A stretch of DNA of 64,000 bases, taken from contig CAZKEF010000017.1 of the NCBI GenBank assembly GCA_964551735.1, positions 31,007 through 95,006 of the forward strand, given 5' to 3'. This DNA comes from an uncultured Anaerolineales bacterium (lineage in GTDB: Bacteria > Chloroflexota > Anaerolineae > CG2-30-64-16). Positions 2,629 to 64,000 of the stretch are shown piece by piece (within the stretch, counting starts at the first letter, position 1; the number at the start of each line of letters is the position of its first letter). A program made the translations under genes and the position numbers. Under the pieces are notes generated by a model, which worked only from the letters and a program-made list of their open reading frames with translations, did no database searches and was not told the DNA's origin.

Positions 2629-3260
2629 CCCATCCCCAGCAGCGCGCGCGTCAATGCCGTGATGCCCGTGCCCAGGAAGCGGCCCAGGATGTCCAGCCGG
2701 GGCGAAACGTAACCGATGAGGAACAGCCCCAACAGGATCATCGGGCCGTACATCTGTAGCGGTTGCAAAACCTGCGCGGCGCGCTCGCCTATCACGCCGC
2801 GCAACACGCTGTTGCCATCCAGCGGCGCCAACGGGATCAGGTTGAACAGGAACAGCGCCACGTTGATGGCGACGAACCTCCAGAAGAAATCGAGCACGTC
2901 GGACGGCATCCCGGCCAGCAGCCCCAGCCGCCACGGCACGGCCACCAACGCGGCCATCAGCAGGTTGCTGGCGGGGCCCGCGGCCGAGACCAGCGCATGG
3001 CCCACCCGCGGCCCGAAACGCAGCCGCCATGGGTTCACCGGCACCGGCTTGGCCCAGCCGATGAAGCTCGCCACGAGCAGCAGGGAGCCGACCGGGTCCA
3101 GGTGCGCCAGGGGGTTGAGCGTCAGCCGGCCCTGCCGCGCAGCCGTGTCATCGCCCAGGAGGTAGGCCGCGTAGGCGTGCGCGGCTTCATGGATCGGAAA
3201 GCCGACCAGGAGGATGACGAGCTTGGCGAGCAGGGAAGGGAGATCGAAGAAATCGAGCAA
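2625..3260 (-). CDS. site-2 protease family zinc metalloprotease (peptidase M50)
   Basis: HEAAH zinc motif inside TM helix, LDG motif, polytopic membrane profile. Confidence 0.65.
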   Translation of the reverse strand: MLDFFDLPSLLAKLVILLVGFPIHEAAHAYAAYLLGDDTAARQGRLTLNPLAHLDPVGSLLLVASFIGWAKPVPVNPWRLRFGPRVGHALVSAAGPASNLLMAALVAVPWRLGLLAGMPSDVLDFFWRFVAINVALFLFNLIPLAPLDGNSVLRGVIGERAAQVLQPLQMYGPMILLGLFLIGYVSPRLDILGRFLGTGITALTRALLGMG

Positions 3261-3395
3261 GAAAACCTCTTTGAAAACGGCTCAGCCTGTTCCTACCGTG
3301 GCAAGTATACGATGCGCATGAACCTATGTCAAACCCATCCCGCGCGGCCGCCCATCAGCTTACCTTTTTGCCCTTGCACGTGCTATCATCACACC

Positions 3396-6077
3396 ATGAC
3401 CCGCCGCACCCTTGACCTCAGCACCCTGCCCTGGCAGTTCGGCCCCGTCGAGCGCCAGCCGTTTACTGCGCAGCCGGCCGATGACCGCGCGGCCGCGGCC
3501 GAGTGGCTGCCTGCACGCGTGCCCGGCGACGTGCGCGCGGACCTGATCGCGGCCGGCCGCATCCCACCCCTCGACACGCCCGAAGGGATCGCCGCGGGCG
3601 CGTGGATTGATGACCGCGATTGGTGGTATCGCGTGACGCTGCCCGGCGGCCTTGCGCCGGATGAGGTTGCGATCCTGGAAGCGGACGGCATTGACTTCTA
3701 CAGCGCGATCTGGCTGGATGACCGCCTGCTCAGCACGCACGCGGGGATGTTCAGCCGGCAGACGGCCGTTTTGACACCCACCTTGAACGCTCCCGGCCCG
3801 CACGAGTTGGCGATCCGCATCTGGGGCGCGGGCGCGCTGCCGAGGGGGGCGAACCGGCCCTGGCGCCGGGCGATCCGTTGGCTGCTGGGTAAGGTCAGCC
3901 CGGCGGCCGAGTACTTCCCCGACCGGCTGCTGACCCCCAAAGCGCAGTTCAGCTTCGGGTGGGACTTCGCCCCGCAGGTGCTCAGCACGGGCATCTGGGA
4001 CGAGATCCGGTTGGTGGTGGCGCGGGGCGCGTATGTCGAGGATCTGTGGGTGGAGGCAGAGCCGGTAGTGGGAGAAGGTGAGCAGAGGGGCGGAGGAGCA
4101 GGGGCGCGGAGGAGCAGGGGGGCAGAGGAGAAAGGGAGCGGGGGAGAAGCAGAGACAGTCATGGCGCGCTTTCGCATGCACTTGCGTTTGCGACGCTGGC
4201 GGGCGCGGCCTTTGCGCGTTGATGTTTCAATCGTCCGCGCACACGACGCTTCATTGGCAACCGATGTCACACTCAGTTACTCATCCCACCGCGGCAACGT
4301 GCGCCCAGAACGACAGCTCTCTTATGTCATGCTGAACGGGTCCACAATTCAAGACACATTGCAGCGCACCACCAGTGAAGCATCTCCACAATGGGAGTTT
4401 CCTGCTGGCGTCACCGAAGAAGATCTCGCTTTAGAGTGCGACCTTCCCGCCGCGCGGCTCTGGTGGCCGTGGGATCAGGGCGAGCCGTGCTTGTACCGGG
4501 TGACCGTACGGCTGGTGGGCGATGACAGCGTGCTGGACGAGGTCAGCCGTGTGGTGGGCGTGCGTTCCGTGCGCCGGGAGCCGCTGCCGGAGGGCAACGG
4601 CTGGCGCTTCGTGATCAACGGCCGGCCCGTTTTCCTGCGCGGGGCCAATTGGGCGCCGGCCGACCTGCTGCCAGGGCGTGTGACCCAGGCTGACTACGAG
4701 CGGCTGCTGGCCCAGGCGCGCTCGGCCGGGATCAATTTCCTGCGCGTGTGGGGCGGCGGGGTGCGCGAAAAGCGCTCGTTCTGGGAGACGTGCGACCGGC
4801 TGGGGATCATGGCGTGGCAGGAGTTCCCGCTGGCCTGCACGTTCCTGGATCACTACCCACGGGATGGAACTGGTTCTGAGGATTGGACGCGGACGAGCGC
4901 GGATGAACGCGGACAGTTCAGATTTTCCGCGCTTGTCCGCGCTCGTCCGCGTCCACACCCAATCACATCCGGTGATGCGAGCAGCTACCTGGCGCTCCTG
5001 GCCTCGGAAGCGCGAGGGATGATCCGGGCGCTGCGCAACCATCCCAGCCTGATTGCCTGGTGCGGCGGCAACGAGATCAACCCCGGTCGCGAGCGCCTGC
5101 CCCTGGCCGCCATCCAGAACGTGCTGGCCGAGGAAGACCCCGACCGGCCGTGGCTGCCCGCGTCGCCGGCTGCGGGGGACGTACACCGCTGGGACGTGTG
5201 GCACGGCTTCGCGCCGTGGACAGCACTCCAACACGAAACCGCGGGGCTGGTGAGTGAGTTCGGCCTGCAGGCGTTGCCCGATCCGGCCACCGTGGCCGAG
5301 ATGTTCCCCGACGGCAACCCGACGGGCCTGACCGACCCGCGCTGGGCCGGCCGCAAGGCCCAGGTCGCCAAGCTGCTGCACTACGCCGGCCCCGAAGCTG
5401 CCAGCCCCCTCGACCGCGCCATCGCCGCCACCCAACGCGCGCAAGCGGCCGGGCTGCAGGCGGGCATCGAAGCGTGTCGCCTGCGCAGGACGACAGAAAA
5501 CGGGACGCGGATGAACGCGGACGGACGCGAAAGACTCCCAGAAGACAGTTTCCGCGCTTGTCCGCGCTCGTCCGCGTCCCATTCGCTGCCAGGCTGCGCG
5601 GGGGTGGTCTTCTGGCAGTTTAGCGAGCCGTGGCCTGCGGTGAGCTGGGCCGTGATTGACCGCGCGGGTCGGCCCAAAGCGGCCTACGCCATGCTCCAGC
5701 GCTGCTTCCAGCCCGTCCTGATCGCCGCGCGTTTCCCCTGGCGTCGCTACGCCGTAGGCGACACCTTCGCCGCCGAAATCTGGCTGGTGAACGATGGGCC
5801 GCTGGCCCGCGCAGGCTGCCGCGCTGAAGCCGCGCTGGATGGCCAGGCGGTTTGGGCAGAGGAAGGGATCGCGCTGCCCGCGGCCGGCAGCGTCCAGGCC
5901 GGCGAGTTGACGGTCAAGCTGGAGGCCGCGCCGCGCGCCCTGGCCCTGCGCCTGCTCTGCGCGGGTGAGGTGCTGGCGACCAACATCTACGACCTGGCGG
6001 TCCACCTGCCCGGCCGGCAGCCGTTGCGCCCGCGCATCCTCCAATGGATCGCTGAACTGCTTTTGATGTCCCGTTGA
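3396..6077 (+). CDS. glycoside hydrolase family 2 (beta-mannosidase-like) with three in-frame repeat insertions
   Basis: ATG at 3396 (residue 212 of track ORF; upstream part overlaps M50 gene on other strand). GH2 N-terminal sugar-binding region (LPWQFGPV...WLPARVPGDV...WWYRVT), TIM-barrel region (INFLRVWGGG...WQEFPLAC... CGGNEI). Reading frame stays open across a G-rich minisatellite (4072-4155) and two palindromic elements (4885-4954, 5501-5579). Confidence 0.65.
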   Translation: MTRRTLDLSTLPWQFGPVERQPFTAQPADDRAAAAEWLPARVPGDVRADLIAAGRIPPLDTPEGIAAGAWIDDRDWWYRVTLPGGLAPDEVAILEADGIDFYSAIWLDDRLLSTHAGMFSRQTAVLTPTLNAPGPHELAIRIWGAGALPRGANRPWRRAIRWLLGKVSPAAEYFPDRLLTPKAQFSFGWDFAPQVLSTGIWDEIRLVVARGAYVEDLWVEAEPVVGEGEQRGGGAGARRSRGAEEKGSGGEAETVMARFRMHLRLRRWRARPLRVDVSIVRAHDASLATDVTLSYSSHRGNVRPERQLSYVMLNGSTIQDTLQRTTSEASPQWEFPAGVTEEDLALECDLPAARLWWPWDQGEPCLYRVTVRLVGDDSVLDEVSRVVGVRSVRREPLPEGNGWRFVINGRPVFLRGANWAPADLLPGRVTQADYERLLAQARSAGINFLRVWGGGVREKRSFWETCDRLGIMAWQEFPLACTFLDHYPRDGTGSEDWTRTSADERGQFRFSALVRARPRPHPITSGDASSYLALLASEARGMIRALRNHPSLIAWCGGNEINPGRERLPLAAIQNVLAEEDPDRPWLPASPAAGDVHRWDVWHGFAPWTALQHETAGLVSEFGLQALPDPATVAEMFPDGNPTGLTDPRWAGRKAQVAKLLHYAGPEAASPLDRAIAATQRAQAAGLQAGIEACRLRRTTENGTRMNADGRERLPEDSFRACPRSSASHSLPGCAGVVFWQFSEPWPAVSWAVIDRAGRPKAAYAMLQRCFQPVLIAARFPWRRYAVGDTFAAEIWLVNDGPLARAGCRAEAALDGQAVWAEEGIALPAAGSVQAGELTVKLEAAPRALALRLLCAGEVLATNIYDLAVHLPGRQPLRPRILQWIAELLLMSR
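4072..4155. repeat. G-rich octamer minisatellite (GGAGCAGG/GGGGAGCA-type units), in-frame inside GH2 gene
   Basis: Tandem 8-nt units readable directly; encodes GEGEQRGGGAGARRSRGAEEKGSGGE; related arrays at 6241-6300, 6908-6960, 11778-11820. Confidence 0.6.
4885..4954. repeat. palindromic MITE/RPE-like element copy 1 (arms GGACGCGGACGAGCGCGGA / TCCGCGCTCGTCCGCGTCC), in-frame in GH2 gene
   Basis: Left arm ggacgcggacgagcgcggatgaacgcggac, right arm ttccgcgcttgtccgcgctcgtccgcgtcc are reverse complements; encodes WTRTSADERGQFRFSALVRARPRPH. Confidence 0.7.
5501..5579. repeat. palindromic MITE/RPE-like element copy 2, in-frame in GH2 gene
   Basis: gggacgcggatgaacgcggacggacgcg ... ttccgcgcttgtccgcgctcgtccgcgtccc; same arms as copy 1; encodes NGTRMNADGRERLPEDSFRACPRSSAS. 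Confidence 0.7.
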
Positions 6078-6112: not shown

Positions 6113-7201
6113 ATGCGCATCGTCATCAACGGCTGGTTTCACGATCAACTTGCCACCGGCAGTGGCCAATACCTCGCCGCCCTGGCCGAGTGGCTGCCGC
6201 GCGTTGGGCAGGAGCATGAGTTTGTGGTGGTGCAACCGGGCGGGGGAGCAGAGGGGCGGAGGAGCAGGGGAGCAGGGGAGCAGGGGGGCAGGGGGGCACC
6301 TGAGTACGGCGAATCGGTGAATCAGCGAATCAGCGAGTCAGCGAGTCAGCGAATCGGCGAATCTCGAAAGACACCATCCGCCATTCGCCATTCGCTATTT
6401 GCTATTCGAACCCCCTTCGACCGCCTCGACCCGAATCTGGCCAAGCTCTGGTTCGAACAGGTCGGGTTCCCCCTGGCGTGCCGGCGGCTGCGGGCCGATG
6501 TGGCGTTCGTGCCCTATTGGGGCTCGCCGTGGTGGTCCCCCTGCCCGGTCATCGTTACGATCCATGACCTGATCCCGCTGCTGCTGCCGCAGTACCGGGG
6601 CGGGCCGCTGCAGCGCGCGTACACGGGGCTGGTGGGCCGGGCCGCGCGCCGCGCGGCCTCGGTGCTCACCGATTCCGAGGCCAGCAAGCGTGACATCATG
6701 GCGCACCTCCGCATCCCGGCCGAGCGCGTCCACGCGATCCACCTGGCGGCCGACCCGCGTTATCGCCCCGTGACCGATCCCGCGACGCTGGCAACCGTGG
6801 ACACAAAGTACAACTTATCGGACAGGCCGTTCGTATTGTATTTGGGCGGTTTCGACGCGCGGAAGAATGTGGTGCGGATGGTGGAGGCGTATGCGCGGCT
6901 GGTGGAACAGGAGCCAGGAGGCAGGAGGCAGGGGGCAGGGGGTGGGGGGCAGGGGACCGGGGTCAGGTTGGTGATCGCCGGGAAGTTGCCGGAGGTGGAC
7001 AGCGCGTTCGCGCCTGACCCGCGGCCGGTGGTGGCGCGGCTGGGGCTGGCGGAGCGGGTGCATTTCACCGGCTGGGTGGACGAGGCGGACAAGCCGGCCC
7101 TCTATTCGCTGGCGGCCGCGACGGTGTTCGTGAGTGAGTACGAGGGGTTCGGCCTGCCGGTGTTGGAGGCCATGGCGTGTGAATCTCCTCCCGAAATGTA
7201 G
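6113..7201 (+). CDS. GT4 family glycosyltransferase, apparently truncated shortly after the EX7E motif; carries in-frame minisatellite insertions
   Basis: ATG at 6113; GT4 N-domain then ...YEGFGLPVLEAMACESPPEM* stops about 12 aa after EAMA where GT4 enzymes normally continue about 90 aa; stop is immediately followed by MITE-like element E1; possible pseudogene/disrupted gene. Confidence 0.5.
   Translation: MRIVINGWFHDQLATGSGQYLAALAEWLPRVGQEHEFVVVQPGGGAEGRRSRGAGEQGGRGAPEYGESVNQRISESASQRIGESRKTPSAIRHSLFAIRTPFDRLDPNLAKLWFEQVGFPLACRRLRADVAFVPYWGSPWWSPCPVIVTIHDLIPLLLPQYRGGPLQRAYTGLVGRAARRAASVLTDSEASKRDIMAHLRIPAERVHAIHLAADPRYRPVTDPATLATVDTKYNLSDRPFVLYLGGFDARKNVVRMVEAYARLVEQEPGGRRQGAGGGGQGTGVRLVIAGKLPEVDSAFAPDPRPVVARLGLAERVHFTGWVDEADKPALYSLAAATVFVSEYEGFGLPVLEAMACESPPEM
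6241..6410. repeat. composite minisatellite: GGGGAGCA octamers x~6, then GAATCAGC octamers x~6, then CCATTCG heptamers x~5 (in-frame in GT4 gene)
   Basis: Direct reading of tandem units; same composite organisation (G-rich octamers followed by A/T-richer units) recurs at 11778-11878. Confidence 0.6.
6908..6960. repeat. G-rich tandem repeat (GGAGGCAG / GGGGGCAG units) in-frame in GT4 gene
   Basis: ggagccaggaggcaggaggcagggggcagggggtggggggcagggg; encodes EPGGRRQGAGGGGQG. Confidence 0.5.
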
Positions 7202-10602: not shown

Positions 10603-13600
10603 GCAATAGTGTCTCTTCCTGGCAGATTATTTCCTGCACAGACACCGCGTCCTTCAAACGCGTGCGCGTCCGCGACGACGCGCGCATCCAGGCCGTGGTG
10701 CGCCACCTGCAGGCGGATGAGTGCGTGGCGCTGTTGGGGCCGCCTCTCAGCGAGAAAAGCCACCTGCTGCACGACATCGCGGACGCGCTGCGGGCCACCG
10801 AGCGCTTCCTGCCGCTCTACCTGGACCTCTGGCGCGCCAACTCGGAGGACGAGGCGGTCTTCTTCACCAGCGTGGCCCGGCTGATCGCGGACGCGCTGGC
10901 CGCGGATCCGCTGCGCCGGGGTGCGGTGGCGCCGGTGGAAGGGGTGGCCGACCCGCGCGACTTTCAACGTTTTCTGACGGAACGCGCCGGCCGCAATGGC
11001 GCGTCCCCGCCGGCCGGCGGCCTGAACCTGGCGCTGCTGATTGACCACCTGCAGGCGCTGCCGCATGACCTGGTCCACAGCCTGCTGCTGGCGCTCCGTT
11101 CCACCTACATGGAGCGCGAGGCGGACGCGCCGCATCAGGTGGTGGCCGTGGTGGCCGGCGGCATGAACCTGGTCGGCCTCTCCACCGGGCCCACCTCCCC
11201 CTTCAACATCGCCAAACCGGTGGTGGCCGCGCCGCTCACCGAGGCCCAGAGCCGCGCGCTGGCCGAGGCCAGCCTGGCGGCCGCAGGCTGCCACGCCTCG
11301 GCCCAGGGGCTGGCGCGGCTGCTCGCCTGGGCTGGGGGCGACCGCTACCTGCTGCCCCGCCTGTGCGCGTGGAGCGCCGCGCTGGTGCAAGACTATCGCC
11401 GCCCGGTGGTCACCTGCCCCGTGGTCGAGCGCGCGGCCGAGCAGGTCTGGCGCGCAGCCGAGATCTTGCCCCCCGTCCGCGAAGCCATCCGCATGATCGA
11501 AGAAGATCCGGACAGCATGCTGGACATCCTGCACCTGCTGGATCACGGCGCGCTGCCCCGCGCCCGGGCCCGGCAGATGATCACCCGCACCGGCGCCGAC
11601 CGGCTCCAGCTCTCCGGCGCGGTCACGCTGGCCGAGGGGTGCTACCTGCTGATCAACCAGGCGTACCGGCTGGCGCTGGCCGAGCACTTCACCACCGAGC
11701 GCGTCGGCCACGTCCTGCGCATTGCCGGCCGCTGGGAGGAGGCGATCCAGTACCTGGCGCCGAGGTTGGCGGTCGAGCAGGGGAGCAGGGGAGAGGGGGA
11801 GCAGGGGAGAGGGGGAACGGGCGACGCAGCACGCAGCGTTCAATCCGAAATTCGCAATTCACAATCCGCAATCCATTCCGCCCGCCCCCAACTCCTCGAA
11901 GCCATCGTCCAGTCGCTGTATGCAACCGATTCGGTCGAGCAGGGATGCGAGACCCTGGCGAACGGCCTGCGGCTGGGTTTCGGGCTGGCGCAGGTCTCGA
12001 TCTACCTGGCGAACCCCGCACAGGGCCGCCTGGACCTGGCTTACCCGCCCGCGCGCGCCACCGGCCCCATCGGCCACCAATCTACCAATCCCCAATCTAC
12101 CAATCCCCAATCTACCGCCTCCGTTGACCTGAACGACCCGGCCTGCGTCGAGGCGCAGACGTACCATTACGGCAACTATGCGCTGCGCGGCACGGCCGAC
12201 GACGCGCGGCTGGTGGCGGCCCTGGCCTCGCAGAACCGGCCGCTGGGCGTGGTCACGGTGGAACACTACATCCAGGCCCGCGACCCGCACACCCTCCCCG
12301 ATGAGCTGCCCGACCTGCTGGGCTTCCTGCACCACGCGGCCGGCGCGCTGGAGAACGTGATCTTCCGGGCCGCGTACCGCGCCATCGGCCAGGCTGTGCT
12401 GGACGCCCGCGCGCTGCAGCCCACGGTCGAACGCGTGCTGAGCGCGGTCTGCGATGCCCTGGGCAGCCACTATGCCGTCCTCTACCTGGTGGACGACACG
12501 GGGCGGACGCTGGAGATGGCGGCCGGCGTGGGCCGGCCGGTCACGCCGGCGTGGCAGGCGGCGGCCCGGTTCTCGCTGGCGGGCCGGCACCCGGCCGCGG
12601 CCGCGCTGCGCGACCAGCGCCTGCAATCCGTGCGCGGCACTGCGGACGGGCCGGACGCGCCCCTGATGGAGCGATTGGGGCTGCACAAGCACACCCGCGT
12701 CTTCCTGCCGTTGGCCGCGGCCAGCGAGGCGCTGGGCACGCTGGAGCTCGGTTACGCGGCCGGCGCGCGGCTCCGCCTGACCGAAGCGGCCCGGCGCACC
12801 TACACCGCGTTCGCCAACCAGGTCGCCATCGGCGTCCACAACATGCAGCTCCTGCGCCGCACCGACGAAGCGCTGACCCGCAAGATGGCCGAGATCTCCG
12901 TGGGCCGCGAGATCCAGCTCAGCCTGCTGCCGAGGTCATGCCCGGCCGTGCCCGGCTGGGACTTCGCCGCGCTCTACCAGGCCGCGCGCATCGTCGGCGG
13001 CGACTTCTACGATTTTTGCGAATTACCCGGCCAGCCCCAGCGGCTGGGCATCGTGATCGCGGACGTCGCGGACAAGGGGGTGCCCGCGGCGCTGTTCATG
13101 GCCCTCAGCCGCACGGTGATCCGCACGGTGGCGCTGAGCGGCCGCGGCCCGGCCGCCGCGCTGATGCGGGCCAACGACGTGATCATGAACGACAGCCAGG
13201 CCGAGCTGTTCCTGAGCGCGATCTACGCGGTGCTGGAGCCCGAAACCGGCCGGCTGACCTACGCCAACGCGGGCCACAACCGGCCGCTGTGGGTTCACGC
13301 CGGGGACGGCACGGTGACCGAGCTGGATCAGCCCGGCATCGTGCTGGGCGCGTTCGAGCACATCGCGCTGACGGAAGGGCAGATCGATCTGGCGGCCGGG
13401 GACGTGGTGGTGTTCTACACCGACGGCATCAACGAGGCGATCAACGCGGACGGCGAGCAGTTCGGCGACGACCGGTTGCGCGACGCCGTGGCTGCGGCCG
13501 CAGCGGGGGGTACGGCGCAGGACGTGCTGACCGCCATCACTGCCGCGCTGGCCGCGTTCGTCGGGGAGACGGAGCAGGCGGATGATGTGACGGGGGTGGT

Positions 13601-15308: not shown

Positions 15309-16064
15309 TCAAGGATAGCATTGAGCGATAAAAGCTTTGTCTGTTTCGGACAGTTCGCTGTTCCATGCTATCTCTGTCCCGTCAAGCGTCCAGCGCTTGG
15401 GTATTGGATACACCATAATCGACTTCGGGTCAAACTGAGTGAATTGAGTCTGAGTAAACATATACCTGGCAAGCACGTTCTCACGAATAGTATACTCATC
15501 CCAGTTGTTCGGTGGGCCAGACAGGTCTTTTATCACAGCTTCTTCATTCCATTTCATACCAGAAGCAGGACTCTGGTGTTCATGAATTAAGCCCAGAGCA
15601 TGACCGAACTCATGCAGCACCACCCGCGAAAACTGTGCATCCACAGAGTCAGGTTTCAACCCACTAAGGTTCATTGTAGGTTGACTAAGCGGGACATCAA
15701 CAACCTCCATACCAACATAGGATGACGAAGGCTGATCGGACCTAAACGAGATGCGGATGTCCGCATTTGGGTAATAATCGTAACGGAATTCGAATCTGAG
15801 GTTCGCGTACTGAAGCCACTGCCTGGCGCAGACTTCTACCTGCTTTCGGACGCTCATGCTGCCGCCAATGAAGGTCACTCTTAGAAGTCGCCCAGGCTTC
15901 CAAAACCAGTTTTCGAGCCCGGCAGCCTGCAGAGGTGAAAGCATATTTCGCGGGTTTTCCGAAATCGCAAGTTGGCGTGCAAGGACATAGTCCGCATGAT
16001 GCACTGAGCGGTCAATACAAATGGACATTGATAACCTAGACATAGCACTTCTCACTTCCCCCAT
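15309..16064 (-). CDS. astacin-like metzincin zinc metalloprotease, no signal peptide
   Basis: HEFGHALGLIHEH (HExxHxxGxxHE astacin-type zinc site) and downstream Met-turn SIMVYP (astacin SxMHY); N-terminus hydrophilic, so predicted cytoplasmic. Confidence 0.55.
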   Translation of the reverse strand: MGEVRSAMSRLSMSICIDRSVHHADYVLARQLAISENPRNMLSPLQAAGLENWFWKPGRLLRVTFIGGSMSVRKQVEVCARQWLQYANLRFEFRYDYYPNADIRISFRSDQPSSSYVGMEVVDVPLSQPTMNLSGLKPDSVDAQFSRVVLHEFGHALGLIHEHQSPASGMKWNEEAVIKDLSGPPNNWDEYTIRENVLARYMFTQTQFTQFDPKSIMVYPIPKRWTLDGTEIAWNSELSETDKAFIAQCYP

Positions 16065-16121
16065 CCCATCGAATGTCGTGCCGAGAATGAGCTTCTTCTT
16101 CTGTGTATCTGGGTCTTCACA

Positions 16122-17297
16122 TCAACGATAGGGTAAGTCATCCCTGATTCGAGTTAGGATTGCTGTGATTGGAATACCTTCATTGCCCCTGATATAGGGT
16201 AGCAATGAAGGGCTAGGTGCTTCCGTTTCGCCATGATGCAGCGCAATAATGTCGCCATCCTTATCAAATACAGGTGCGCCGGAAGCGCCGTGCTCAGTAT
16301 GAGTCAAGTACTGCATCCGTCTCCTAGTAGTATCTATGATCAAGTTGTGGAATAAGGCGATCTTCTGGGGCTTGTATCCAGGGTACTGGACAACGAAAGC
16401 CACGCCATACAGTTTGGGAGTCTTCGGGACGAGTCGCACATATCCTATCTCCGGCATGTCTCCAGGTCGTCCCTCGATTCTTAGTAATGAAAAGTCAAGG
16501 TTCTCAGTATCACTTGAACGTACCACATGCTCAACCCAATACTCATACCCCTGCTCGAGAACTCCCTTGCTGCTATATCTGAACCTAAAGCGAACGCGAT
16601 ATGCACGCTGTTTAGCGTTCTTTGGCACAACATGGTTGCAGGTCAAGACTAGATCGGGAGCAACGGCGAATCCTGTCCCAACTGACCTTCCGTCGGGTTC
16701 TTCGATGCGGCAAGTGGCACTGCTGATTCGGCCTACCGACTCTGAAAAGGCAACTTCTAGGAGGTTGACCGTCTGTTGCCATTGACTAAGCATCGTATCT
16801 GGGGCCAATGAGCCATACCACGGGTAAGGAGCACGAGGTTGGTGCCAACCCAGATCAAAGAGCCTATCAGTGGGAGAGATCACTGGAAGAGGGAGTTTGA
16901 CTAGATTGGCAACCTTCTCTCTGAACCGAATCTCGCTGAAATCCTCTTTGAATATCACATCGCCATGATAATCTATCCTGACAGCAGTAGTTAGTTCGTA
17001 ATCTTCGCGCCGCGGGCAAAGACGTGCTCCGTCGGTCACAACCACAACCTTGATACCCCGGTTCACCGCTTTATCAATCATTTCGATGCAGTCTTGACGA
17101 ATCCGCGTATGATTATCTTCCCGATCGTTCAATTGTACATTAAGTACGGCAAGGTCAAGGTGCTCGGAGCGAATCAGACTAATGGCCTGAGATCGCTCGC
17201 TTTCACACAGGATTTCATGACCTAACGGCTCAAGAGCGTCATGAAGCTTATCCATGCGCCATTGTTGGTCATTATCAATGATTAGAATACGCGCCAT
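16122..17297 (-). CDS. response-regulator receiver domain fused to trypsin-like (S1-family) serine protease
   Basis: REC features: IIDND acidic pocket, D in HLDLAVLNV, VVVVTDG, K in IFKEDF. Protease triad: LTCNHVV (His), NLDFSLLRI (Asp), GASGAPVF (GDSGGP-like Ser). Confidence 0.6.
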   Translation of the reverse strand: MARILIIDNDQQWRMDKLHDALEPLGHEILCESERSQAISLIRSEHLDLAVLNVQLNDREDNHTRIRQDCIEMIDKAVNRGIKVVVVTDGARLCPRREDYELTTAVRIDYHGDVIFKEDFSEIRFREKVANLVKLPLPVISPTDRLFDLGWHQPRAPYPWYGSLAPDTMLSQWQQTVNLLEVAFSESVGRISSATCRIEEPDGRSVGTGFAVAPDLVLTCNHVVPKNAKQRAYRVRFRFRYSSKGVLEQGYEYWVEHVVRSSDTENLDFSLLRIEGRPGDMPEIGYVRLVPKTPKLYGVAFVVQYPGYKPQKIALFHNLIIDTTRRRMQYLTHTEHGASGAPVFDKDGDIIALHHGETEAPSPSLLPYIRGNEGIPITAILTRIRDDLPYR

Positions 17298-17330
17298 ATC
17301 AATCTCCGTCAGTTGTTGTCACAAAAAACG

Positions 17331-18152
17331 CTATGATACGACGCGGAGGCCGCTGAGTGCATTCCGTATTGCATCCCGATATCTAACTGGGGAGAACTTA
17401 TGCTTATCCACATAGTAGCACGCCCCATAGTTTCGATATGACTCGCGTATATGCACTGGCGTACCATGTCCGGAGCTAACAATAACCTGAGTAAACCTTC
17501 CCCGTGCATGGTCCAATTCTCTAAGTAGACTCATCAAATACAACCCTTCATAATTCGACTCATCATTTTCAGCTAATCTCAGATCACAAATAACCAGATC
17601 GTAACTTTGCTCCGTAAGGCTCTTCTCCGCTGCAGTGCGACTCGTAGCCGTGTCTATCCTAGCCATTGTTGGTAACGAATCCACCAAGGTCTTAAGCCAG
17701 GTTGGATCATCATCAATTACCAAGACAGTGCCGCTAGAAGTCACTAGAAGTTCACGTCTGTTTGTAACAAGGCGCACAGCGGCGAAAGACTGATCGACCA
17801 GAGCTACGAGTTGATCCTCGTCGTATGGTTTGCCTACACAGTCAAAGGCGCCTTGCTGAAAGACAGATCCCAACTCCTCCAGAGGAGGGTCAACGGCATA
17901 CAGTACAACAGCAGGTATACAGCGATCGGATAACGCGCTCAAGAACCAACGATCCTGAGTTAATGTGTCAAAGTCAACCAGTGTTATAAGATGCTGCAGT
18001 GCGTCGCCTAGGGCATTGAGAATTGCTCGGGCGCTATCTGGCGACGAGGCTGTGGCAACTTGATAGTCTGCCTCGCGCAGTGTAGTGCTGGCGAAATCCA
18101 GCCAATCCTTCTCAGAGTCAACGATCAGCACTTGACTGGCTTCCGTGTTCAT
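17331..18152 (-). CDS. tandem receiver-domain (REC-REC) response regulator without output domain
   Basis: Two REC units: VLIVDSEKD...LVDFD...K and VLVIDDDP...DLVICDLRL...VIVSSG...K. Confidence 0.6.
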   Translation of the reverse strand: MNTEASQVLIVDSEKDWLDFASTTLREADYQVATASSPDSARAILNALGDALQHLITLVDFDTLTQDRWFLSALSDRCIPAVVLYAVDPPLEELGSVFQQGAFDCVGKPYDEDQLVALVDQSFAAVRLVTNRRELLVTSSGTVLVIDDDPTWLKTLVDSLPTMARIDTATSRTAAEKSLTEQSYDLVICDLRLAENDESNYEGLYLMSLLRELDHARGRFTQVIVSSGHGTPVHIRESYRNYGACYYVDKHKFSPVRYRDAIRNALSGLRVVS

Positions 18153-18154
18153 AT

Positions 18155-26220: not shown

Positions 26221-28648
26221 CCTTCTCCTGTTTCGCGCAAGGCAGCTTCACCACGAAGGCAGTCCCGATGAACATCAGGCTTGCTGCCAGGCTCAGGCTC
26301 CCGCCCGTCATCTCGACCAGGTTCCGGCTAATATAAAGACCCAGACCGGCGCCATCGGGGCGTGTGGTGTATCCCATTTCGAATACCCGTTCGTGAAGTT
26401 GTCCGTGAATTCCGGGGCCACTGTCCATCACGGCAATTTCCAGGGGACGTCCTGTGAAACCCTCGATACGTCGTGTTTGAACTATGACCTGCCGAACACG
26501 CGCCAAATCAGCCTGTTCGCCCTGTTCTGCATGGAGTTGTCCAAAGAACTGCATCTTCAATTCGATCTGTTGGATGGAGTTAAGTATCAAATTGGTCAGT
26601 ATTTGCTCAAGTTGCGGCCGGATGGCCAATGCCTTTGGGAGTCCAGCGGAAAGATCTGTGGCAAACATGATTCCTGCAGCGCGCGCCCTGTGTTCCAATT
26701 GACGCAGCACGCCGGTAACCGCTTCATTGACATTCACCAGATCGAGCTCGTGTCGAGCCAGGCGTGTATAACCCTTCACCAAATCCGAAAGACTTCCTTG
26801 CTGTTGTGCAAGCCTATGAACTGAGTCTGCGATCTTTTGTCCCCGTGCCTGATCTGGAGCGGCCTGTGCCTTGTCGCAATATCCCTGTAAGAGCTTTGTC
26901 TCCCAGTTGAGGCCATCGAGCTTGTGGTTCAATTCATGCACCAGGTTCGCCAAGAGTTCACCTCGAGAACAGTGTTCCTGATAACCGCGCATGTGATCGA
27001 GGAGTATCGCGTTCTCAATTGTAGTTGCAAGAAGCCCTGCCCCCAATCGTGCCCGATCGACCTGTTCACGCCCCTCCCTGCTTTTTGTGGAGAAGCCCAG
27101 GATGCGTTCGTCAAAGAGAAAGAGGGCGTGTCGAGTCAGCCGTCCAGGAATCAGGAGCGGCAACCCAAAACAGGAGCGATAACGCAAGTCTGGAAACAGA
27201 TTGCGAAGGCGTGCTTCCTCATAACGAAGCGCCTCAGTGAACCGAAATTCCTGTTCTTCCTCGATCACATTACGTGCCGGACTGTGATATAGGGTGCCCA
27301 CTGCCCTTTCCGCTATCCCCGGAGGTACTGGCGGATCCGCGGCCAGAATCGAAACGATCTTGCTGGCTGTATCCAACTCCAACACCATCGCCTGGCTGAT
27401 CTGGATGGTCTCCCGTAATGTCATCAACGCGTCCAACAAACGCTCATGCAGCGACCGTTTCGCCAGGGATTTAAGGCCAACTCGTTCCAAGAACCCAGAT
27501 TGACTGCCACCAGGCGACGAGCGCGATGCTATGACTCTGGTCCAATAACCCGTACATAACCTGTGCACCCAATCAACGATTTCTTCGTCGGTCTTATCTA
27601 TCAAAGGATCCGTGGGCTTTTCGATCTCCGCAACAACAGGCAACTCAGACCCGTTGATGATGACCGGTGCTTCTGCTCTGTTGAGTTCCGGGTCGTGCGA
27701 TGGCGGGGCGAAATCCAAATCCAGCTTTTCGACGCGCATCCTGCTGACAAACAGCACTGGTAGACCAGGCCTGGCAGTACGCAGCCGAGTGGCCACAGCC
27801 GGTCCAAGCTCACCATCCAAATACACATCAACGATAGCTAATCCGTAGGAATGGCCCCCTCTAACTAGCTCTAGGGCCTGATCCCCGGAACTCAAACCAT
27901 CGACCTCAACGCCGAACTCTCTCTTCAGGGCCTCACAGATACGTTCTCGATCCTGCACATCATCATCCACCACCAAGAAACGATGAGGCCGTGGAATAGG
28001 AGGCAAAAACCGATACGTTTCGGTTAGCCCTTCTTGGTCAGATGAACCGTCCTGATGAGGCAAAGAGGTTGGCTGGGGTTCGGGAGTACGGAGCAAATCT
28101 GCCAGCGCGTGACTCTGCTCCTGAACGCTGGCGAGGCGCCTAAGCTCACCCCACAGGCTGAGGTCAATTTGCCTCAGCGTGGGACTCATCTTCGTTACGA
28201 GGCCGCGCACCCGGTCCCCGATCCAGAGCAGATCCTCCACCCCCAAATCGCGCAAGATGGGGAGATCATCTCGCCAAACTACCGCATCAATCCCCGGTTC
28301 CAACTGGACAAAAGCGCGATCATGTTGGACGTTTACCACCTCGCCTTCAACGCTTTGACCAATTCGATAGCGATACCTCACACCAACATCGTCCCAAGGG
28401 TCAGCGGCCTGGCGCAGGCTCAGAAACACCAACCCACGCTGCGGATCATCTTCCAAGACAATTGCATCGAATTCCGAGCCTACCTGGGGCATTGTTGGCA
28501 TAACGCCGATGCGCCGATCCCACGACAATTCTTTCCGCCGGATGAAACCGGCGCGATTGCTCTTGAGAATCTTGACCCAGACACCCGTGTCTCGGATTTG
28601 GGCAACAGCAACTCGCACGCGAGTTGATGGTAACATAAATGACGCCAT
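26198..28648 (-). CDS. hybrid sensor histidine kinase: two N-terminal S1-like RNA-binding domains + REC + GAF + HisKA + HATPase_c
   Basis: S1-like OB folds: VRVAVAQIRDTGVWVKILKSNRAGFIRRKELSW... and IGQSVEGEVVNVQHDRAFVQLEPGIDAVVWRDDL...IGDRVRGLVTKM; REC (FLVVDDDV...LAIVDVYL); H-box HELNHKL; ATP lid VMDSGPGI...GLGLYISRNLVEMTGGSL. Confidence 0.6.
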   Translation of the reverse strand: MASFMLPSTRVRVAVAQIRDTGVWVKILKSNRAGFIRRKELSWDRRIGVMPTMPQVGSEFDAIVLEDDPQRGLVFLSLRQAADPWDDVGVRYRYRIGQSVEGEVVNVQHDRAFVQLEPGIDAVVWRDDLPILRDLGVEDLLWIGDRVRGLVTKMSPTLRQIDLSLWGELRRLASVQEQSHALADLLRTPEPQPTSLPHQDGSSDQEGLTETYRFLPPIPRPHRFLVVDDDVQDRERICEALKREFGVEVDGLSSGDQALELVRGGHSYGLAIVDVYLDGELGPAVATRLRTARPGLPVLFVSRMRVEKLDLDFAPPSHDPELNRAEAPVIINGSELPVVAEIEKPTDPLIDKTDEEIVDWVHRLCTGYWTRVIASRSSPGGSQSGFLERVGLKSLAKRSLHERLLDALMTLRETIQISQAMVLELDTASKIVSILAADPPVPPGIAERAVGTLYHSPARNVIEEEQEFRFTEALRYEEARLRNLFPDLRYRSCFGLPLLIPGRLTRHALFLFDERILGFSTKSREGREQVDRARLGAGLLATTIENAILLDHMRGYQEHCSRGELLANLVHELNHKLDGLNWETKLLQGYCDKAQAAPDQARGQKIADSVHRLAQQQGSLSDLVKGYTRLARHELDLVNVNEAVTGVLRQLEHRARAAGIMFATDLSAGLPKALAIRPQLEQILTNLILNSIQQIELKMQFFGQLHAEQGEQADLARVRQVIVQTRRIEGFTGRPLEIAVMDSGPGIHGQLHERVFEMGYTTRPDGAGLGLYISRNLVEMTGGSLSLAASLMFIGTAFVVKLPCAKQEKDEHHEQD

Positions 28649-28819
28649 TAATACAGGACCTCTTAAGTCATTTGAATCCCCATGCGGTGGAGAACCACTC
28701 GAAACGCCGAGAAAAAATCTCAGGTCAGAACCCGAATTTCAGAAGTTGCATAAACAGAACACATGTGCTAACCTTGGCTCTAGATCCATCCTGCCACGCC
28801 CGACACTTGGAGGTACAAA

Positions 28820-29062
28820 ATGGCACTAGACATGTGGTTCAAGGAAGATATCAGAAACGTACTCCTATCACTCAACCTGGTTTCAGCAGCCACAAGTCGG
28901 TGGGTTCAAGACGCACGCTTGGATGCCTATCGTCACGGTTATGAAGAGGCGATCGCTGCGGTGGCGCTGGCTTTTGGCCTACCGCCACGTTCGGTGCTCG
29001 GAAAAGATAGAGAGCAAGGCAGCGAATACGACGTGTCTTGGGACCTCAAACTACTGCCCTGA
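28820..29062 (+). CDS. small hypothetical protein (80 aa), divergent from island operon
   Basis: Good RBS GGAGG 7 nt upstream of ATG; no recognisable motif. Confidence 0.3.
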   Translation: MALDMWFKEDIRNVLLSLNLVSAATSRWVQDARLDAYRHGYEEAIAAVALAFGLPPRSVLGKDREQGSEYDVSWDLKLLP

Positions 29063-29077
29063 CATGTGGCTTGCCAG

Positions 29078-29914
29078 TCAGGGAGCGGTCTCAGGTATCA
29101 CGCCGCTGTCAAAGCGCAGGCTGTTCATGACTGTTAGCAGGCTCGGCCACAGTTGATCCCATGCGGCGCTATCGCACATCGCTTCAATAGCGTAAAGACG
29201 CCCTTCATAGCCAACCACTGCTTGATACCACCGCATTTCTTTCTGGCTTAGGCTATCCCTACCCTGTATGTAACGTTCGAGGCAAGCCAGCTTTTCCTTT
29301 CCAACAGTACATGCTTTTGGAAGCCCGACGTCAGCGCCGGAATGAAGACCACTCAGGATGACTTCTTTTCGCTGATCGAGTTGTTTCAGCAACGCTTCGG
29401 CATCAACAGCCGATACTGTATTCAAATAGCAAATGCGATACTGCGCGCGGCTCCACTGCACATCTTCTTGGTCATTGGCAATGTTCGAGAAGACCGTGCC
29501 CCGACAGTCACTGGCTCTTTCCTCCACTTGAAAGGACTGGGCAAGCTGGTCTCTGCCAATGCTGAAGTAATAGAGCTTGTTGACATACGACTGGTTCGCG
29601 ACCTCTGGTGTAGGCGTCTTCAGGGCTGTTGTCACAGGGGTGTTCTCTACAGGCAGTCTGTCCTGGCAACCCCAGGCTGTCAATAAGAGAATACCAAGGG
29701 CCACCACCGTAAGCAAGGCCATGATGAGCGAGGGACTCGACAGACGATCGAGGTTCTTGCCCGACGCCAGGGCTAACTGTCTTAGGTATTCTTTTCTTGA
29801 GGTAGTCACGGTTTCCTCCTTACGACGAATACTCGGCTGCTGCACTAGGTGACATATGGTTGCTGGGGACGCCGTTACGAGGTCGTAATCATGTTTTGCC
29901 TTGGCGGGCCTCAA
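29078..29914 (-). CDS. hypothetical exported protein / putative lipoprotein (alternative start about 29722 giving signal peptide MALLTVVALGILLLTAWGC)
   Basis: Single hydrophobic segment followed by Cys, then a Cys-containing soluble domain with no recognised motifs. Confidence 0.4.
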   Translation of the reverse strand: MRPAKAKHDYDLVTASPATICHLVQQPSIRRKEETVTTSRKEYLRQLALASGKNLDRLSSPSLIMALLTVVALGILLLTAWGCQDRLPVENTPVTTALKTPTPEVANQSYVNKLYYFSIGRDQLAQSFQVEERASDCRGTVFSNIANDQEDVQWSRAQYRICYLNTVSAVDAEALLKQLDQRKEVILSGLHSGADVGLPKACTVGKEKLACLERYIQGRDSLSQKEMRWYQAVVGYEGRLYAIEAMCDSAAWDQLWPSLLTVMNSLRFDSGVIPETAP

Positions 29915-31235
29915 CTATTCTGACCTCGATCACATTTATGCCCCATTGCTGAGAACGCCGATCAAGGTTCGTTTGTAGTTCCTGACAGACCGTACTGACT
30001 TTTGTCGTTTTATCACAGAAGAGATTCTTGAACTCATAGCTCGGTAGTACGTCATATAGTGCCATCGAAATGTCTTCTTTGAGCCGCTTTTCCCATGCAC
30101 GCTTCAATTCGGGAGGCTCAAGAGGGTTGTCCCCTTTCTTATCATGTTCTCTGGACTTCGGAGCCATTATCTCTTGTGCCATGCTAACCGCTTTTCTTAT
30201 GGCCTCTGCCATCAGTTCCTTATCAGTGGTTTCTTGGATTCCGTAGGAGAACGATACTTGGATTTCTACATAAGTACTTGGTCCAGTTGCAACCTTCTGC
30301 TTTTGTGATTGGGTGTAATGATAGCAACTTGGAACAAAAGCCGCGATTTTATCAAATGGACGGCGAGCAAATGGAGTACGACTGAACGAAGGCAGGAGGT
30401 CTCCCCTTCTTTGTAAGACAGTGTAACAGCCAGGACGCACCGGCACTCGAAGCAGCCTATCGAAAACTAGATATAGAACCCATGTGGAAAAACCTAGAGT
30501 AAGTATCATTACCAATCGATCGATGCTCAAACCCATAAGGCTTACAACGACTAGTCCAAAGAGGATAAGTGTAAGGAACAGACTTCCAACGCGAACAACC
30601 CAGGGCAATGTAAGCCCAGCTTTTGGAACTTGCGTGGAAGTACCGTTTGCATTTGATCCATCCGTAGCGGAAGTTACCCCTGGCGCTGATATATCTTCAG
30701 TTGACCCAGGTTTGTCTGAAGATGGTGTCTCTGCCGGCATCTGTTCGATCTCCAAATTATGCCTGATTAGCTTGTCAGATAGTATCTGCCCCCGAAATCC
30801 TGCGCACAATTCCTGCGCGACATCACCTACCTTGGCCTCCTGTCTCTGCCATGCATAAATCAGCCCACAGGCGTAGAGTGCCACATTAGAGTTATAGCCA
30901 TCGAAACCAGTTGAAAATGCCTCCTTTGCGTCAAGATAGTGAAGTAAAGCACCTGCGAAATCTCCCATGGCATGGTGACAAATGGCAAGATACATGGTAA
31001 TGAGACCGCGCGCAGACTGGCTTGCCCCATTAAATCCTTGGTAACCGTACGTACGCTGCAACGCCTTAATAAGCAACTCCTGTGCCGTGAGGTAATCCCC
31101 TTCTTCGATTTTTTCCTTGCCTTCCTTAAGATACTGTGCCAACATTCCATATCCAGATAGGGAAACGACGGATAACAGGCTCAAGATATCCTGCACATCG
31201 GTTTTGTATGCTAGTATCCTCTCGTTTGTCACCAT
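29889..31235 (-). CDS. TPR-like N-domain, two TM helices, C-terminal SPFH/band-7 domain protein
   Basis: C-terminal ...WGINVIEVRIVEA resembles SPFH terminal GIEV..V.I motif; middle hydrophobic stretch LFLTLILFGLVVVSLMGL. Confidence 0.45.
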   Translation of the reverse strand: MVTNERILAYKTDVQDILSLLSVVSLSGYGMLAQYLKEGKEKIEEGDYLTAQELLIKALQRTYGYQGFNGASQSARGLITMYLAICHHAMGDFAGALLHYLDAKEAFSTGFDGYNSNVALYACGLIYAWQRQEAKVGDVAQELCAGFRGQILSDKLIRHNLEIEQMPAETPSSDKPGSTEDISAPGVTSATDGSNANGTSTQVPKAGLTLPWVVRVGSLFLTLILFGLVVVSLMGLSIDRLVMILTLGFSTWVLYLVFDRLLRVPVRPGCYTVLQRRGDLLPSFSRTPFARRPFDKIAAFVPSCYHYTQSQKQKVATGPSTYVEIQVSFSYGIQETTDKELMAEAIRKAVSMAQEIMAPKSREHDKKGDNPLEPPELKRAWEKRLKEDISMALYDVLPSYEFKNLFCDKTTKVSTVCQELQTNLDRRSQQWGINVIEVRIVEARQGKT

Positions 31236-31289
31236 GAAGCAACCTCATCTCGCTAAGTCATCACGCAAAAGATAAGACCCACACAAGGC

Positions 31290-32711
31290 CTAACTGATGG
31301 CATTGCCCACGATTGACTCTTTTGTCTTCTGGATTAGGGCAAGAGAATCGTTCGGCAACAAAATCTTGGTTGCCGGATCACTAGCCATCTTCTCCAATGT
31401 CTCCAAGAAGCGGAGCGACAATAAATACGCAGCAGTATCTCGGCCAGACAAATTCAAAGTTCTGAAGGTAGCTGCCATTTGCTCAACAAGCTGTTTCTGG
31501 GCCTGTGCCCAAGCAACCTCTTTGAGCTTGAGAATCACAGCTTCAGCCTCACCTTTACGGATCATTGCTTCGCGCTGATTCTGAGCTACGCGCACATTCC
31601 ATTCAGCCAGCCAAGTTTCCAGAAGACGATCTTCAGACTCCTTAGGGATTTTGATGCGATTGATATCTACGGAACCGACAACCACCCCCATGAGTTGTTT
31701 AGTAACCTTGTTCATCTCATCAGCCAATATCTTTTTTAGATTAGTCCGAAACGCATCCGAGACAGGAATTATCTCGTCCAGGTCATAGCGCCCTATGACA
31801 TCGCGCGTTGATGTCTCGGCAACTGAGCGAACACCGCCACGCCAATCCGCGCCACTTGGACTCCAGATATTCTTTCGAATAACATCTTCGTTGTATAAAA
31901 ACTGGCCGTCTTCAATGCACTCATCCTTTGGCTCAGAATCAACCTTATGAAAGACCAAGATCTCGAACTCGTCAATCAGGATCTTGTCTTTAGTAGCCAC
32001 CTTTTCTACAATCAGTTTTTCAGTTCGCGTATACAACGGCACCACCATACTGATCCGCTCAAACGGCCTCAGCATCGTGATCCCCCGTCCCACCACACGC
32101 GAGAGCCTGCCGCTGACCTCTAGAATGACCGCATGCCCTTCCTGAACGAGCAAGATCCCCGGCCCGCCAAACCGCGCCAGGCTGCTCCCGCTCTCCCCGC
32201 GCACCTCGGCCTGGCCGTTGCTCACGATCCACGTGCCGCGGTTGATGCCCAGCAGGATGCTGACGGCGCTCATCGCGGCTTCCCACTCGTGTCCTTTGTA
32301 GTTTTCGTACTGGCTGTACAACCCCGGGCCGGCCACGAGACCGTAGGGCAGCAGCAGTACGACAGCAACCAGAACCGCGACCAAGATCCCGCCGATCAAC
32401 GACCAAAACAGGATCAGGCTGGGGCTACCGAACAGGAACCCAAGCACTGTGTTGGCCCCGGCTTCACCTTGGGGTGCCAGCCCGGCAAGCAACGTGCCGA
32501 TAACCCAACGCATGAGGAGCGCAAAGGTCAGGAACACGGCCAGTAAGAAGATGAATCGCGGTGTCACCTGGACGCGTCGCGAAAGGAACGGCAGCTTGAA
32601 TGAGAACGCGACCAGGTACAGCACCACGAACAAGATCGCGCCCATCCAGCCCAGCTTGACGGCCAGGAAAGCGAAGGCGAGGGTGAGGACTATCTCGATC
32701 AGCGTGCGCAT
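31290..32711 (-). CDS. polytopic membrane protein with SPFH/band-7 (flotillin/HflK-like) domain and C-terminal coiled coil
   Basis: About 4 N-terminal TM helices; SPFH-like block GPGILLVQEGHAVILEVSGRLSRVVGRGITML...; Ala/Glu/Lys-rich C-terminal helix. Confidence 0.45.
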   Translation of the reverse strand: MRTLIEIVLTLAFAFLAVKLGWMGAILFVVLYLVAFSFKLPFLSRRVQVTPRFIFLLAVFLTFALLMRWVIGTLLAGLAPQGEAGANTVLGFLFGSPSLILFWSLIGGILVAVLVAVVLLLPYGLVAGPGLYSQYENYKGHEWEAAMSAVSILLGINRGTWIVSNGQAEVRGESGSSLARFGGPGILLVQEGHAVILEVSGRLSRVVGRGITMLRPFERISMVVPLYTRTEKLIVEKVATKDKILIDEFEILVFHKVDSEPKDECIEDGQFLYNEDVIRKNIWSPSGADWRGGVRSVAETSTRDVIGRYDLDEIIPVSDAFRTNLKKILADEMNKVTKQLMGVVVGSVDINRIKIPKESEDRLLETWLAEWNVRVAQNQREAMIRKGEAEAVILKLKEVAWAQAQKQLVEQMAATFRTLNLSGRDTAAYLLSLRFLETLEKMASDPATKILLPNDSLALIQKTKESIVGNAIS

Positions 32712-57170: not shown

Positions 57171-57197
57171 TCTCAGTAGATCACAGATTCAAGCTCG

Positions 57198-57245: not shown

Positions 57246-57253
57246 TCAAATTT

Positions 57254-61863: not shown

Positions 61864-64000
<2,137 letters not shown>

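Follow-up and report, generated by a model that had tools for sequence, protein, structure and literature searches.

A 64,000-nucleotide (nt) stretch of DNA from an uncultured Anaerolineales bacterium of the Chloroflexota (contig CAZKEF010000017.1, positions 31,007 to 95,006; hereafter the window) carries three complete copies and one half copy of a palindromic element whose arms are made of about three 10-nt units, each with a CGCGGA core. The three complete copies are inserted in frame in two protein-coding genes, which encode a glycosidase of glycoside hydrolase family 2 (GH2) and an MrpA-like antiporter subunit. Because the same arms, inverted, bracket a gene encoding a small protein of the GxxExxY family in related bacteria, the hairpins are probably gene-less, non-autonomous derivatives of a GxxExxY nuclease cassette, which would persist inside genes only where the frame is kept and the loop is tolerant. 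The preliminary description of this DNA, made from the sequence alone, had missed that these arms are the inverted repeats flanking GxxExxY nuclease genes.

All copies are described on the forward strand. Copy 1 (4885-4954, 70 nt) ends in GGAC...GTCC and copy 2 (5502-5580, 79 nt) in GGGAC...GTCCC, while copy 3 (62216-62285) is 70 nt long and belongs to a palindrome that reaches about 62209-62291. The half copy is a left-type arm of three units without its partner arm (50242-50273). It is 94% identical to the left arm of copy 1 and lies in a 59-nt intergenic spacer between an alpha/beta-hydrolase gene (start 50219) and a sugar-kinase-like gene (stop 50279), both co-directional on the minus strand. 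An element of about 70-80 nt had been reported at these sites, together with an intergenic left arm; all were recovered, with limits that move from 5501-5579 for copy 2, from 62214-62286 for copy 3 and from 50240-50274 for the lone arm. The left arm can be written GGACGCGGA-yrar-CGCGGA-tgaa-CGCGGA and the right arm TCCGCG-cytg-TCCGCG-ctcg-TCCGCGTCC; the third unit of the left arm of copy 2 has decayed to GCGAAA. A repeat finder grouped the copies of the window at 64-94% identity. When up to two mismatches are allowed, the 18-mer GACGCGGAYRARCGCGGA has 13 matches in the window versus 0.08 expected from shuffles, and all of them belong to the three hairpins or the lone arm except one weak match at 48437.

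Transcribed into RNA, the hairpins of the window are predicted to fold at -43 to -62 kcal/mol (-62.3 kcal/mol for copy 1), with z values of -5.8 to -11. The sense and antisense RNAs fold equally well, and no strand preference through G-U pairs was found. Neither the whole window nor the GH2 region, which was scanned with higher sensitivity, gave an Rfam match at the gathering threshold, the only matches being sub-threshold ones to generic microRNA hairpins. Intrinsic terminators were considered and rejected: none is predicted at 4700-5800 and the sequences that follow the hairpins (ACACCC, CATTCG, GATTTC) include no T run. No promoter signature was found at the GH2 copies.

Both host genes are intact. 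The GH2 gene (3396..6077, forward strand) is an open reading frame (ORF) of 893 amino acids (aa) related to beta-mannosidases and exo-glucosaminidases. An identical protein is present in NCBI (P0001), along with about 700 homologs carrying PF02836/PF00703/PF22666; the protein aligns over its full length and keeps the invariant catalytic motifs, including the GGNE and SEFG glutamates. The second gene (61864..64000, forward strand, continuing past the end of the window) was recognized as encoding an MrpA/NuoL-like antiporter subunit from its translation, its start and its homologs with PF00662/PF00361/PF13244. Its product likewise aligns over its full length with orthologs and retains the conserved motifs. 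Neither gene is a pseudogene and, as stated in the preliminary description, every complete copy lies within an open frame that it leaves unbroken, at residues 497-520 (copy 1) and about 702-727 (copy 2) of the GH2 protein and in the loop between transmembrane segments 3 and 4 (TM3-TM4) of the MrpA-like protein (copy 3).

The residues added by copies 1, 2 and 3 are TRTSADERGQFRFSALVRARPRP, GTRMNADGRERLPEDSFRACPRSSAS and GTRINADERGEEKQSAPVRARPRP, respectively. Lengths divisible by three, which the preliminary description had anticipated for the copies, are found for the whole insertions and not for the hairpin cores (70, 79 and 70 nt), and the right arm of copy 2 is read in a frame differing from that of copies 1 and 3. 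A 2-nt duplication that would bring 70 and 79 nt to a multiple of three is not claimed, as it hinges on the placement of the ends (77 or 79 nt for copy 2). A six-frame check found copies 1, 2 and 3 stop-free in 4, 5 and 4 frames, so that an open frame is by itself unremarkable; an open frame combined with an insertion length of 3n would occur by chance with a probability of roughly 0.25 per copy, that is about 0.015 for the three. Since left arms of the GATGAA type carry a TGA stop in two of the three frames, the in-frame copies share the reading G-T-R-x-N-A-D-E-R-G.

In an AlphaFold model of the GH2 protein (AF2; predicted template modelling score, pTM, 0.79), both inserts are located in segments with a predicted local distance difference test (pLDDT) value below 50, with well-predicted helices and strands on either side. 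Copy 1 belongs to segment 490-528, between helices 478-486 and 528-546, and copy 2 to segment 701-730. According to this model, both GH2 inserts lie in disordered loops.

Comparison with orthologs indicates, as originally suggested, that these segments were inserted and are not ancestral. The reading HYPRDxA-YL, without insert, is found at GH2 site 1 in nearly all orthologs, and the protein of the window is about 39 codons longer. One relative (L118) keeps a short remnant only, and the two closest relatives (L117 and L120) carry another hairpin, TCGAGGCTTyAGCCGG...CCGGCTAAAGCCTCGA. At GH2 site 2, 147 nt are found in the window and in L117 versus 39 nt in L118 and L120, so that 36 codons separate the two states; 39 nt are likewise found in the close relatives P0002 and P0003. 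Copy 2 and the copy found at the same site in L117 differ at 6 of 79 positions (92% identity), and one of these differences is a compensatory pair in the arms (GGAC/GTCC to GGAT/ATCC). The TM3-TM4 loop of MrpA has the minimal form YYFK-GDN-SAWRF in 102 of the 112 orthologs covering it, including the closest ones (78-80% identity), and is 37 residues longer in the window. The insertion of copy 3 is also present, 97% identical, in a relative known from a metagenome (L136). The finding of copies in independent assemblies (L117 and L136) rules out an assembly artefact and shows that the inserts are inherited with the genes. As the same GH2 and MrpA loops hold unrelated inserts in other lineages, these sites are tolerant to insertions.

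Other repeats were observed in the GH2 gene and elsewhere in the window. The hairpin found in frame in L117 and L120 (peptide ..RGFSR...PAKAS..), at the exact GH2 site occupied by a CGCGGA hairpin in the window, represents a second family, CGAGGCTTCAGCCGG...CCGGCTAAAG(C/T)(C/T)TCG, that also has an intergenic member in the window (49337-49387); repeats of different families have therefore settled in one and the same loop. An 8-nt unit (GGAGCAGG and variants) forms runs at 4048-4170, 6222-6320 and 11751-11833. The first two runs, a second kind of in-frame repeat insertion, are within the coding frames of the GH2 gene and of the downstream glycosyltransferase-like gene, respectively, where they encode Gly/Glu/Arg-rich segments (..GEGEQRGGGAGARRSRGAEEKGSGGEAE..); the run in GH2 corresponds to a segment with pLDDT<50 that is variable in length among orthologs. 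The GH2 ortholog of L117 (positions 3001-4833, relative GCA_037441915.1) is called as a protein of only 610 aa with an unrelated N-terminus, and its upstream part may be interrupted or mis-called.

The family extends far beyond the window. A scan with a 19-nt arm motif in one genome per species gave at least 116 loci, from which taxon counts are those of a sample. Seven of the 116 listed loci were chance motif matches in a conserved actinobacterial gene and were discarded; the remaining ones have phased units or full hairpins. Among the matches listed, Chloroflexota form the majority, the others coming from Acidobacteriota, Planctomycetota, Verrucomicrobiota, Deltaproteobacteria, Bacteroidota, Gemmatimonadota and further groups, and the named sources of the closest homologs of both the host genes and the element are metagenome-assembled genomes of Chloroflexota/Anaerolineae. 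The exact 29-nt right arm of the window was found at 23 unrelated metagenome loci, most of them intergenic, as full hairpins or lone arms, and additional arm clusters are present in the host loci at about 18 per Mb. Only 22 of the 102 arm matches listed are located in ORFs of at least 200 aa, versus 74% of random positions in the same loci. The family is mainly intergenic and its genic copies are a minority of survivors. The notion of a selfish family that persists only in frame is supported for the copies found within genes and has to be qualified for the family as a whole (22% versus 74%).

In-frame copies were also identified in a membrane protein related to PTPS in two Ardenticatenaceae (L065 and L088), in a chorismate-binding enzyme (L091) and in TilS (L057). 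Two other loci that looked in frame, L010 and L102, were dropped: an antisense ORF and a read-through from one gene into another are the likely explanations. A profile of the hairpin-encoded peptide compared with 1.84 billion proteins gave 8 weak matches, the query being too short for a census.

The lengths of the 41 unique full hairpins, 49 to 125 nt, display no bias toward multiples of three, and neither a target-site duplication nor a flanking direct repeat was found at any of them; their flanks often prolong the palindrome (aatg before the hairpin, catt after it). The cores are conserved and complementary (at least 0.9), whereas the 4-nt spacers are variable and complementary in 22-66% of copies, which fits the recognition of phased sites rather than mere hairpin stability. 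In several loci, arrays of lone arms directly precede ribosome-binding sites. When all ORFs less than 2 kb away from the arms were clustered for the 116 listed loci, no recurrent transposase and no recurrent regulator gene emerged, the only large clusters being those of the actinobacterial gene matched by chance. On contigs from IMG/VR predicted to be viral, three to five CGCGGAT units immediately precede a ribosome-binding site and a start codon (L160 at 8238 and 9016, L168 at 492, and L169), such arrays being found upstream of several genes, and L172 has a full hairpin.

In three loci, the same clustering detected a protein of about 140 aa that directly adjoins the arms and belongs to TIGR04256 ("GxxExxY")/PF13366 (PDDEXK_3). 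In L002, L003 and L085 (Prosthecobacter), its gene is exactly between a left and a right arm, and the apparent lone right arms of L123 and L131 are the ends of GxxExxY cassettes. As a control for circularity, homologs of the L002 protein were picked by protein similarity alone and six contigs were fetched. All six genes are bracketed by CGCGGA arms or embedded in tandem hairpin arrays, at three conserved syntenic sites (SurE/aldo-keto reductase, epimerase/thiamine pyrophosphate (TPP) enzyme and PMT/GT2). The arms of the window (GGACGCGGAcgagCGCGGAtgaaCGCGGA / TCCGCGcttgTCCGCGctcgTCCGCGTCC) match those around the GxxExxY genes of L002, L003, L123, L131 and L148-L155, and the only longer unit that has the same ends as the hairpins is the GxxExxY cassette of roughly 520 bp.

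This association is not limited to CGCGGA arms. The GxxExxY gene of L136, which is located between mrp genes, belongs to another subfamily and has on its flanks phased hairpins that form a distinct family, the CACAAAGRCA type. Eight GxxExxY genes carried by replicons of cultured bacteria from six phyla were also inspected for flanking repeats. Six of them, from Bacteroides, Bernardetia, Prevotella, Sphingomonas (between fabD and fabG), Treponema and Gemmatirosa, are bracketed by or adjoin inverted repeats of 8-10-nt units whose sequence is lineage-specific, the hairpin of Gemmatirosa being of the CGCGGAT type; the other two have direct repeats as flanks.

The GxxExxY protein has a PD-(D/E)XK nuclease fold with invariant residues E36, D75 and E85-x-K87. 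PADLOC and PHROGs gave marginal nuclease matches only, and the sole result of a sequence search of the PDB, a match to a repeat protein, was discarded as spurious. The function of the family is listed as "Unknown" (PMC3424549). In the literature searched that names the family, no tie to repeats was found, and the possible system formed by the repeat and the enzyme is apparently undescribed. Some genomes presumably hold many GxxExxY paralogs.

Several features of the GxxExxY loci may be added. Complete CGCGGA hairpins, each with a conserved spacer, are repeated in tandem about every 108 nt on both sides of the GxxExxY gene between the epimerase gene and the TPP-enzyme gene (L144-L147 and L157, about 1275-1500 and 1915-2230). 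Elsewhere, the cassette is co-directional with its neighbours inside an operon or a tight gene pair, i.e., fabD-fabG in L179 (Sphingomonas), radA and its downstream gene in L177 (Bacteroides) and an mrpB-like/mrpC-like pair in L136 (9284-9667); in these three cases, the arms could pair across the gene in the transcript. Gene callers stretch GxxExxY proteins into the arms, as seen in the alignment for P0295, P0299, P0347, P0354 and P0358, thus generating false extensions (MGRGRAQINAE at the N-terminus and ..NPRFPRSSAS.. at the C-terminus).

The life history of the hairpins could be pictured as follows. They are copies of a dispersed, multi-copy repeat family, with arms that are arrays of units of about 10 nt with a conserved CGCGGA core, and they land mostly between genes. 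We infer that the GxxExxY nuclease would recognise the periodic, phased CGCGGA arms and mobilise the hairpins, spreading or maintaining them by a putative route of insertion. A copy that enters a gene would survive only if the total insertion is 3n, stop-free and placed where about 25-40 extra residues are tolerated, in a loop at the surface or between helices. It would then be transcribed and translated along with the rest of the host protein, as for the palindromic elements of Rickettsia, the very stable hairpins of the mRNA presumably being translated through.

Some data weigh against such an origin from a GxxExxY cassette. None of the loci compared showed a transposition event, a target-site duplication or a clean boundary between empty and filled sites. 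The GxxExxY gene is absent from the 64-kb window, and a matching cassette in this organism is assumed from its relatives. Where they are present, GxxExxY genes occupy conserved syntenic sites, so the gene itself is not visibly mobile, and we know of no stand-alone PD-(D/E)XK protein that transposes DNA by itself. Loci L001-L143 were fetched by the arm motif, and the conservation of the cores of one arm is therefore partly built in; the translation of the inserts is predicted from their open frames. Furthermore, the copies found within genes are conserved at 92% and 97% versus 72-92% for the flanking coding DNA. This modest extra conservation and the compensatory change are not obviously expected of a purely neutral passenger and are compatible with a host-level role or with concerted evolution.

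Such a role could be that of an RNA or DNA structure that the host keeps within the gene for its own use and that would be more than tolerated selfish DNA: it might pause translation, offer a site for RNase III or for mRNA stability, or act as a cruciform or as a site for nucleoid proteins. The great stability of the hairpins, the conservation of orthologous copies at least equal to that of flanking coding DNA, the GGAC/GTCC to GGAT/ATCC change and the lone arm arrays found directly upstream of ribosome-binding sites in several loci are all consistent with it. We nevertheless consider it unlikely: the closest orthologs do without the hairpins, the same loops carry unrelated inserts elsewhere, terminator and promoter features are lacking, both RNA strands fold equally well, spacer positions are often non-complementary, and concerted evolution among copies could mimic constraint. 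Slightly less credible again is the proposal that the CGCGGA arrays are operator or iteron-like sites for a host DNA-binding protein, spread by local duplication and recombination, their link with GxxExxY being incidental (for example, if the gene inserts preferentially in hairpin loops). The 10-nt phasing, which equals one helical turn, the conserved cores with free spacers, the lone arms upstream of genes and the tandem arrays of about 108 nt in L144 and L157 would all suit binding sites. Yet regulatory sites are unexpected inside coding loops of unrelated genes and no recurrent regulator gene is found nearby; moreover, arm sequences differ by GxxExxY subfamily, which suggests that the arms co-vary with this gene and not with a host factor.

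Two further explanations bear on the reality of the added residues. The hairpins might be removed from the mRNA like the intervening sequences of rRNA, by cutting at the long stem and rejoining the ends, so that the proteins would be devoid of the extra residues. RNase III prefers stems of this kind; those of the hairpins, about 30 bp long, would be substrates, and some GxxExxY cassettes lie inside operons with arms able to pair across the gene. Excision would, however, not need the open frame and the 3n total that all three copies and their orthologous counterparts keep (the chance of about 0.015 for three copies given above), and no bacterial system that rejoins mRNA in this way is known to us, which makes this explanation very improbable. 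That there was no insertion at all, the segments being ancestral or chance palindromic coding sequences or an assembly artefact, could be imagined because chance repeats are many in GC-rich genomes and the window is probably metagenome-assembled. It is refuted by the excess of motif matches over shuffled sequences (13 versus 0.08), the absence of the segments from orthologs, the identical 29-nt arms at the 23 unrelated metagenome loci and the same insertions in independent assemblies. The derivation of the hairpins from a GxxExxY cassette remains the explanation that we favour.

Among known systems, the Rickettsia palindromic elements (RPEs), which are palindromic repeats inserted in frame in unrelated functional genes (Ogata et al. 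2000/2002; summarised in PMC10969869 and PMC3733652), come first to mind and had been invoked in the preliminary description. The likeness in behaviour stands: dispersed palindromes are in frame in unrelated and apparently functional genes, their peptides are at positions compatible with the fold, and other copies are intergenic. Membership of RPE-1 to RPE-10 is rejected on the basis of the host, as the closest homologs of the host genes and of the element with a named source belong to Chloroflexota/Anaerolineae and not to Rickettsia and the G+C content of the window is 66-68% outside one island. RPEs are about 100-150 bp long versus 70-79 nt for the hairpins of the window, whose host differs in phylum and base composition and whose family spans many phyla and has arms of phased 10-nt units. 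In addition, about a fifth or fewer of the copies of the wider CGCGGA family are genic, and the family is associated with a nuclease gene, an association unreported for RPEs.

The arrangement of arms and gene recalls the repetitive extragenic palindromes (REPs), their paired form (REPINs) and the associated tyrosine transposases (RAYTs) (Nunvar 2010; Bertels and Rainey 2011, PMC3116915; Di Nocera 2013, PMC3733652). In both cases, short, hairpin-forming, mostly extragenic repeats are present in multiple copies (tens to hundreds for REPINs), and a small, stably placed chromosomal gene is flanked by the same repeats in inverted orientation, the sequence of the repeats co-varying with the gene subfamily. 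However, the flanked gene encodes a GxxExxY protein with a PD-(D/E)XK fold instead of an HUH/Y1 tyrosine transposase, and the CGCGGA arms are direct arrays of 10-nt units, unlike the imperfect palindromes of 20-40 nt with a GTAG or CGTC tag. Membership of the REP/REPIN-RAYT group was rejected on these grounds, the GTAG tag also being absent. The arms do end in CGTCC, yet assignment to CGTC-tagged REPs was rejected on stem and loop geometry, arms of about 30 nt contrasting with their 8-9-bp stems (PMC3733652). By analogy, the system fits one that would work like REPIN/RAYT without belonging to it.

Bacterial MITEs, or miniature inverted-repeat transposable elements (Correia/NEMIS, ERIC, RUP and Nezha, reviewed in PMC10969869), resemble the hairpins in being non-coding, in their terminal inverted repeats, their folding into hairpins, their co-transcription with genes and their occasional in-frame fusion with ORFs. 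They differ in that neither a target-site duplication nor a related insertion sequence with a DDE transposase was found for the CGCGGA hairpins, whose only coding relative with the same arms encodes a protein with a nuclease fold. Small ORFs are also found in intervening sequences of 23S rRNA, elements located in rRNA that RNase III cuts out. Like the GxxExxY cassettes, they consist of a small gene enclosed by the long stem of its flanks in a transcribed host unit; in contrast, the gene-less CGCGGA hairpins are in protein-coding frames and are predicted to be translated.

The remainder of the window contains repeats of other kinds. A perfect small palindrome, (CCCT)GTAGGGCAAGATAGCATCTTGCCCTAC(AGGG), which starts with GTAG like GTAG-tagged REPs, is present in two copies (55641-55671 and 58402-58432). 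A 78-nt repeat found at 57172-57249 and 58735-58812 (82% identity) includes two short hairpins, GGGGGTCTGTGACCCCC and GCCGGTCACAGACCGGC. Dense nested repeats with a 6-18-nt period (GTGGGCGTG..) and 300-nt units spaced 456-618 nt apart occupy 34000-36700 and probably correspond to the gene of a repetitive protein. The G+C content of the window is 64-68% apart from one block of 49-53% (16000-32000), possibly an island gained by horizontal transfer.

In Rickettsia, palindromic repeats inserted in frame are a classic curiosity. Their occurrence in Chloroflexota that are free-living and GC-rich, where lineages have kept orthologous copies, shows that this behaviour is not peculiar to reduced intracellular genomes. 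It also has consequences for annotation, since the repeats give rise to spurious peptides, cause gene calls to be wrongly extended at the N- or C-terminus (GTRMNADERG, MGRGRAQINAE, PRSSAS) and inflate protein lengths, while marking insertion-tolerant loops in enzymes and membrane proteins. The arms tie the hairpins to GxxExxY, a family of thousands of members, and lead to the hypothesis that these proteins bind or cleave their own phased inverted repeats; they also provide a candidate second system of the REPIN/RAYT type. A wider proposal, which we put forward only tentatively, is that a class of hairpins with phased arms, spread across phyla, has the GxxExxY proteins as its dedicated enzymes, each subfamily recognising its own arms of about 10-nt periodicity and copying or maintaining gene-less hairpins, as a second, mechanistically different (non-HUH) counterpart of REPIN-RAYT. 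If so, new protein loops would arise steadily from the in-frame copies, in Chloroflexota as in other phyla.

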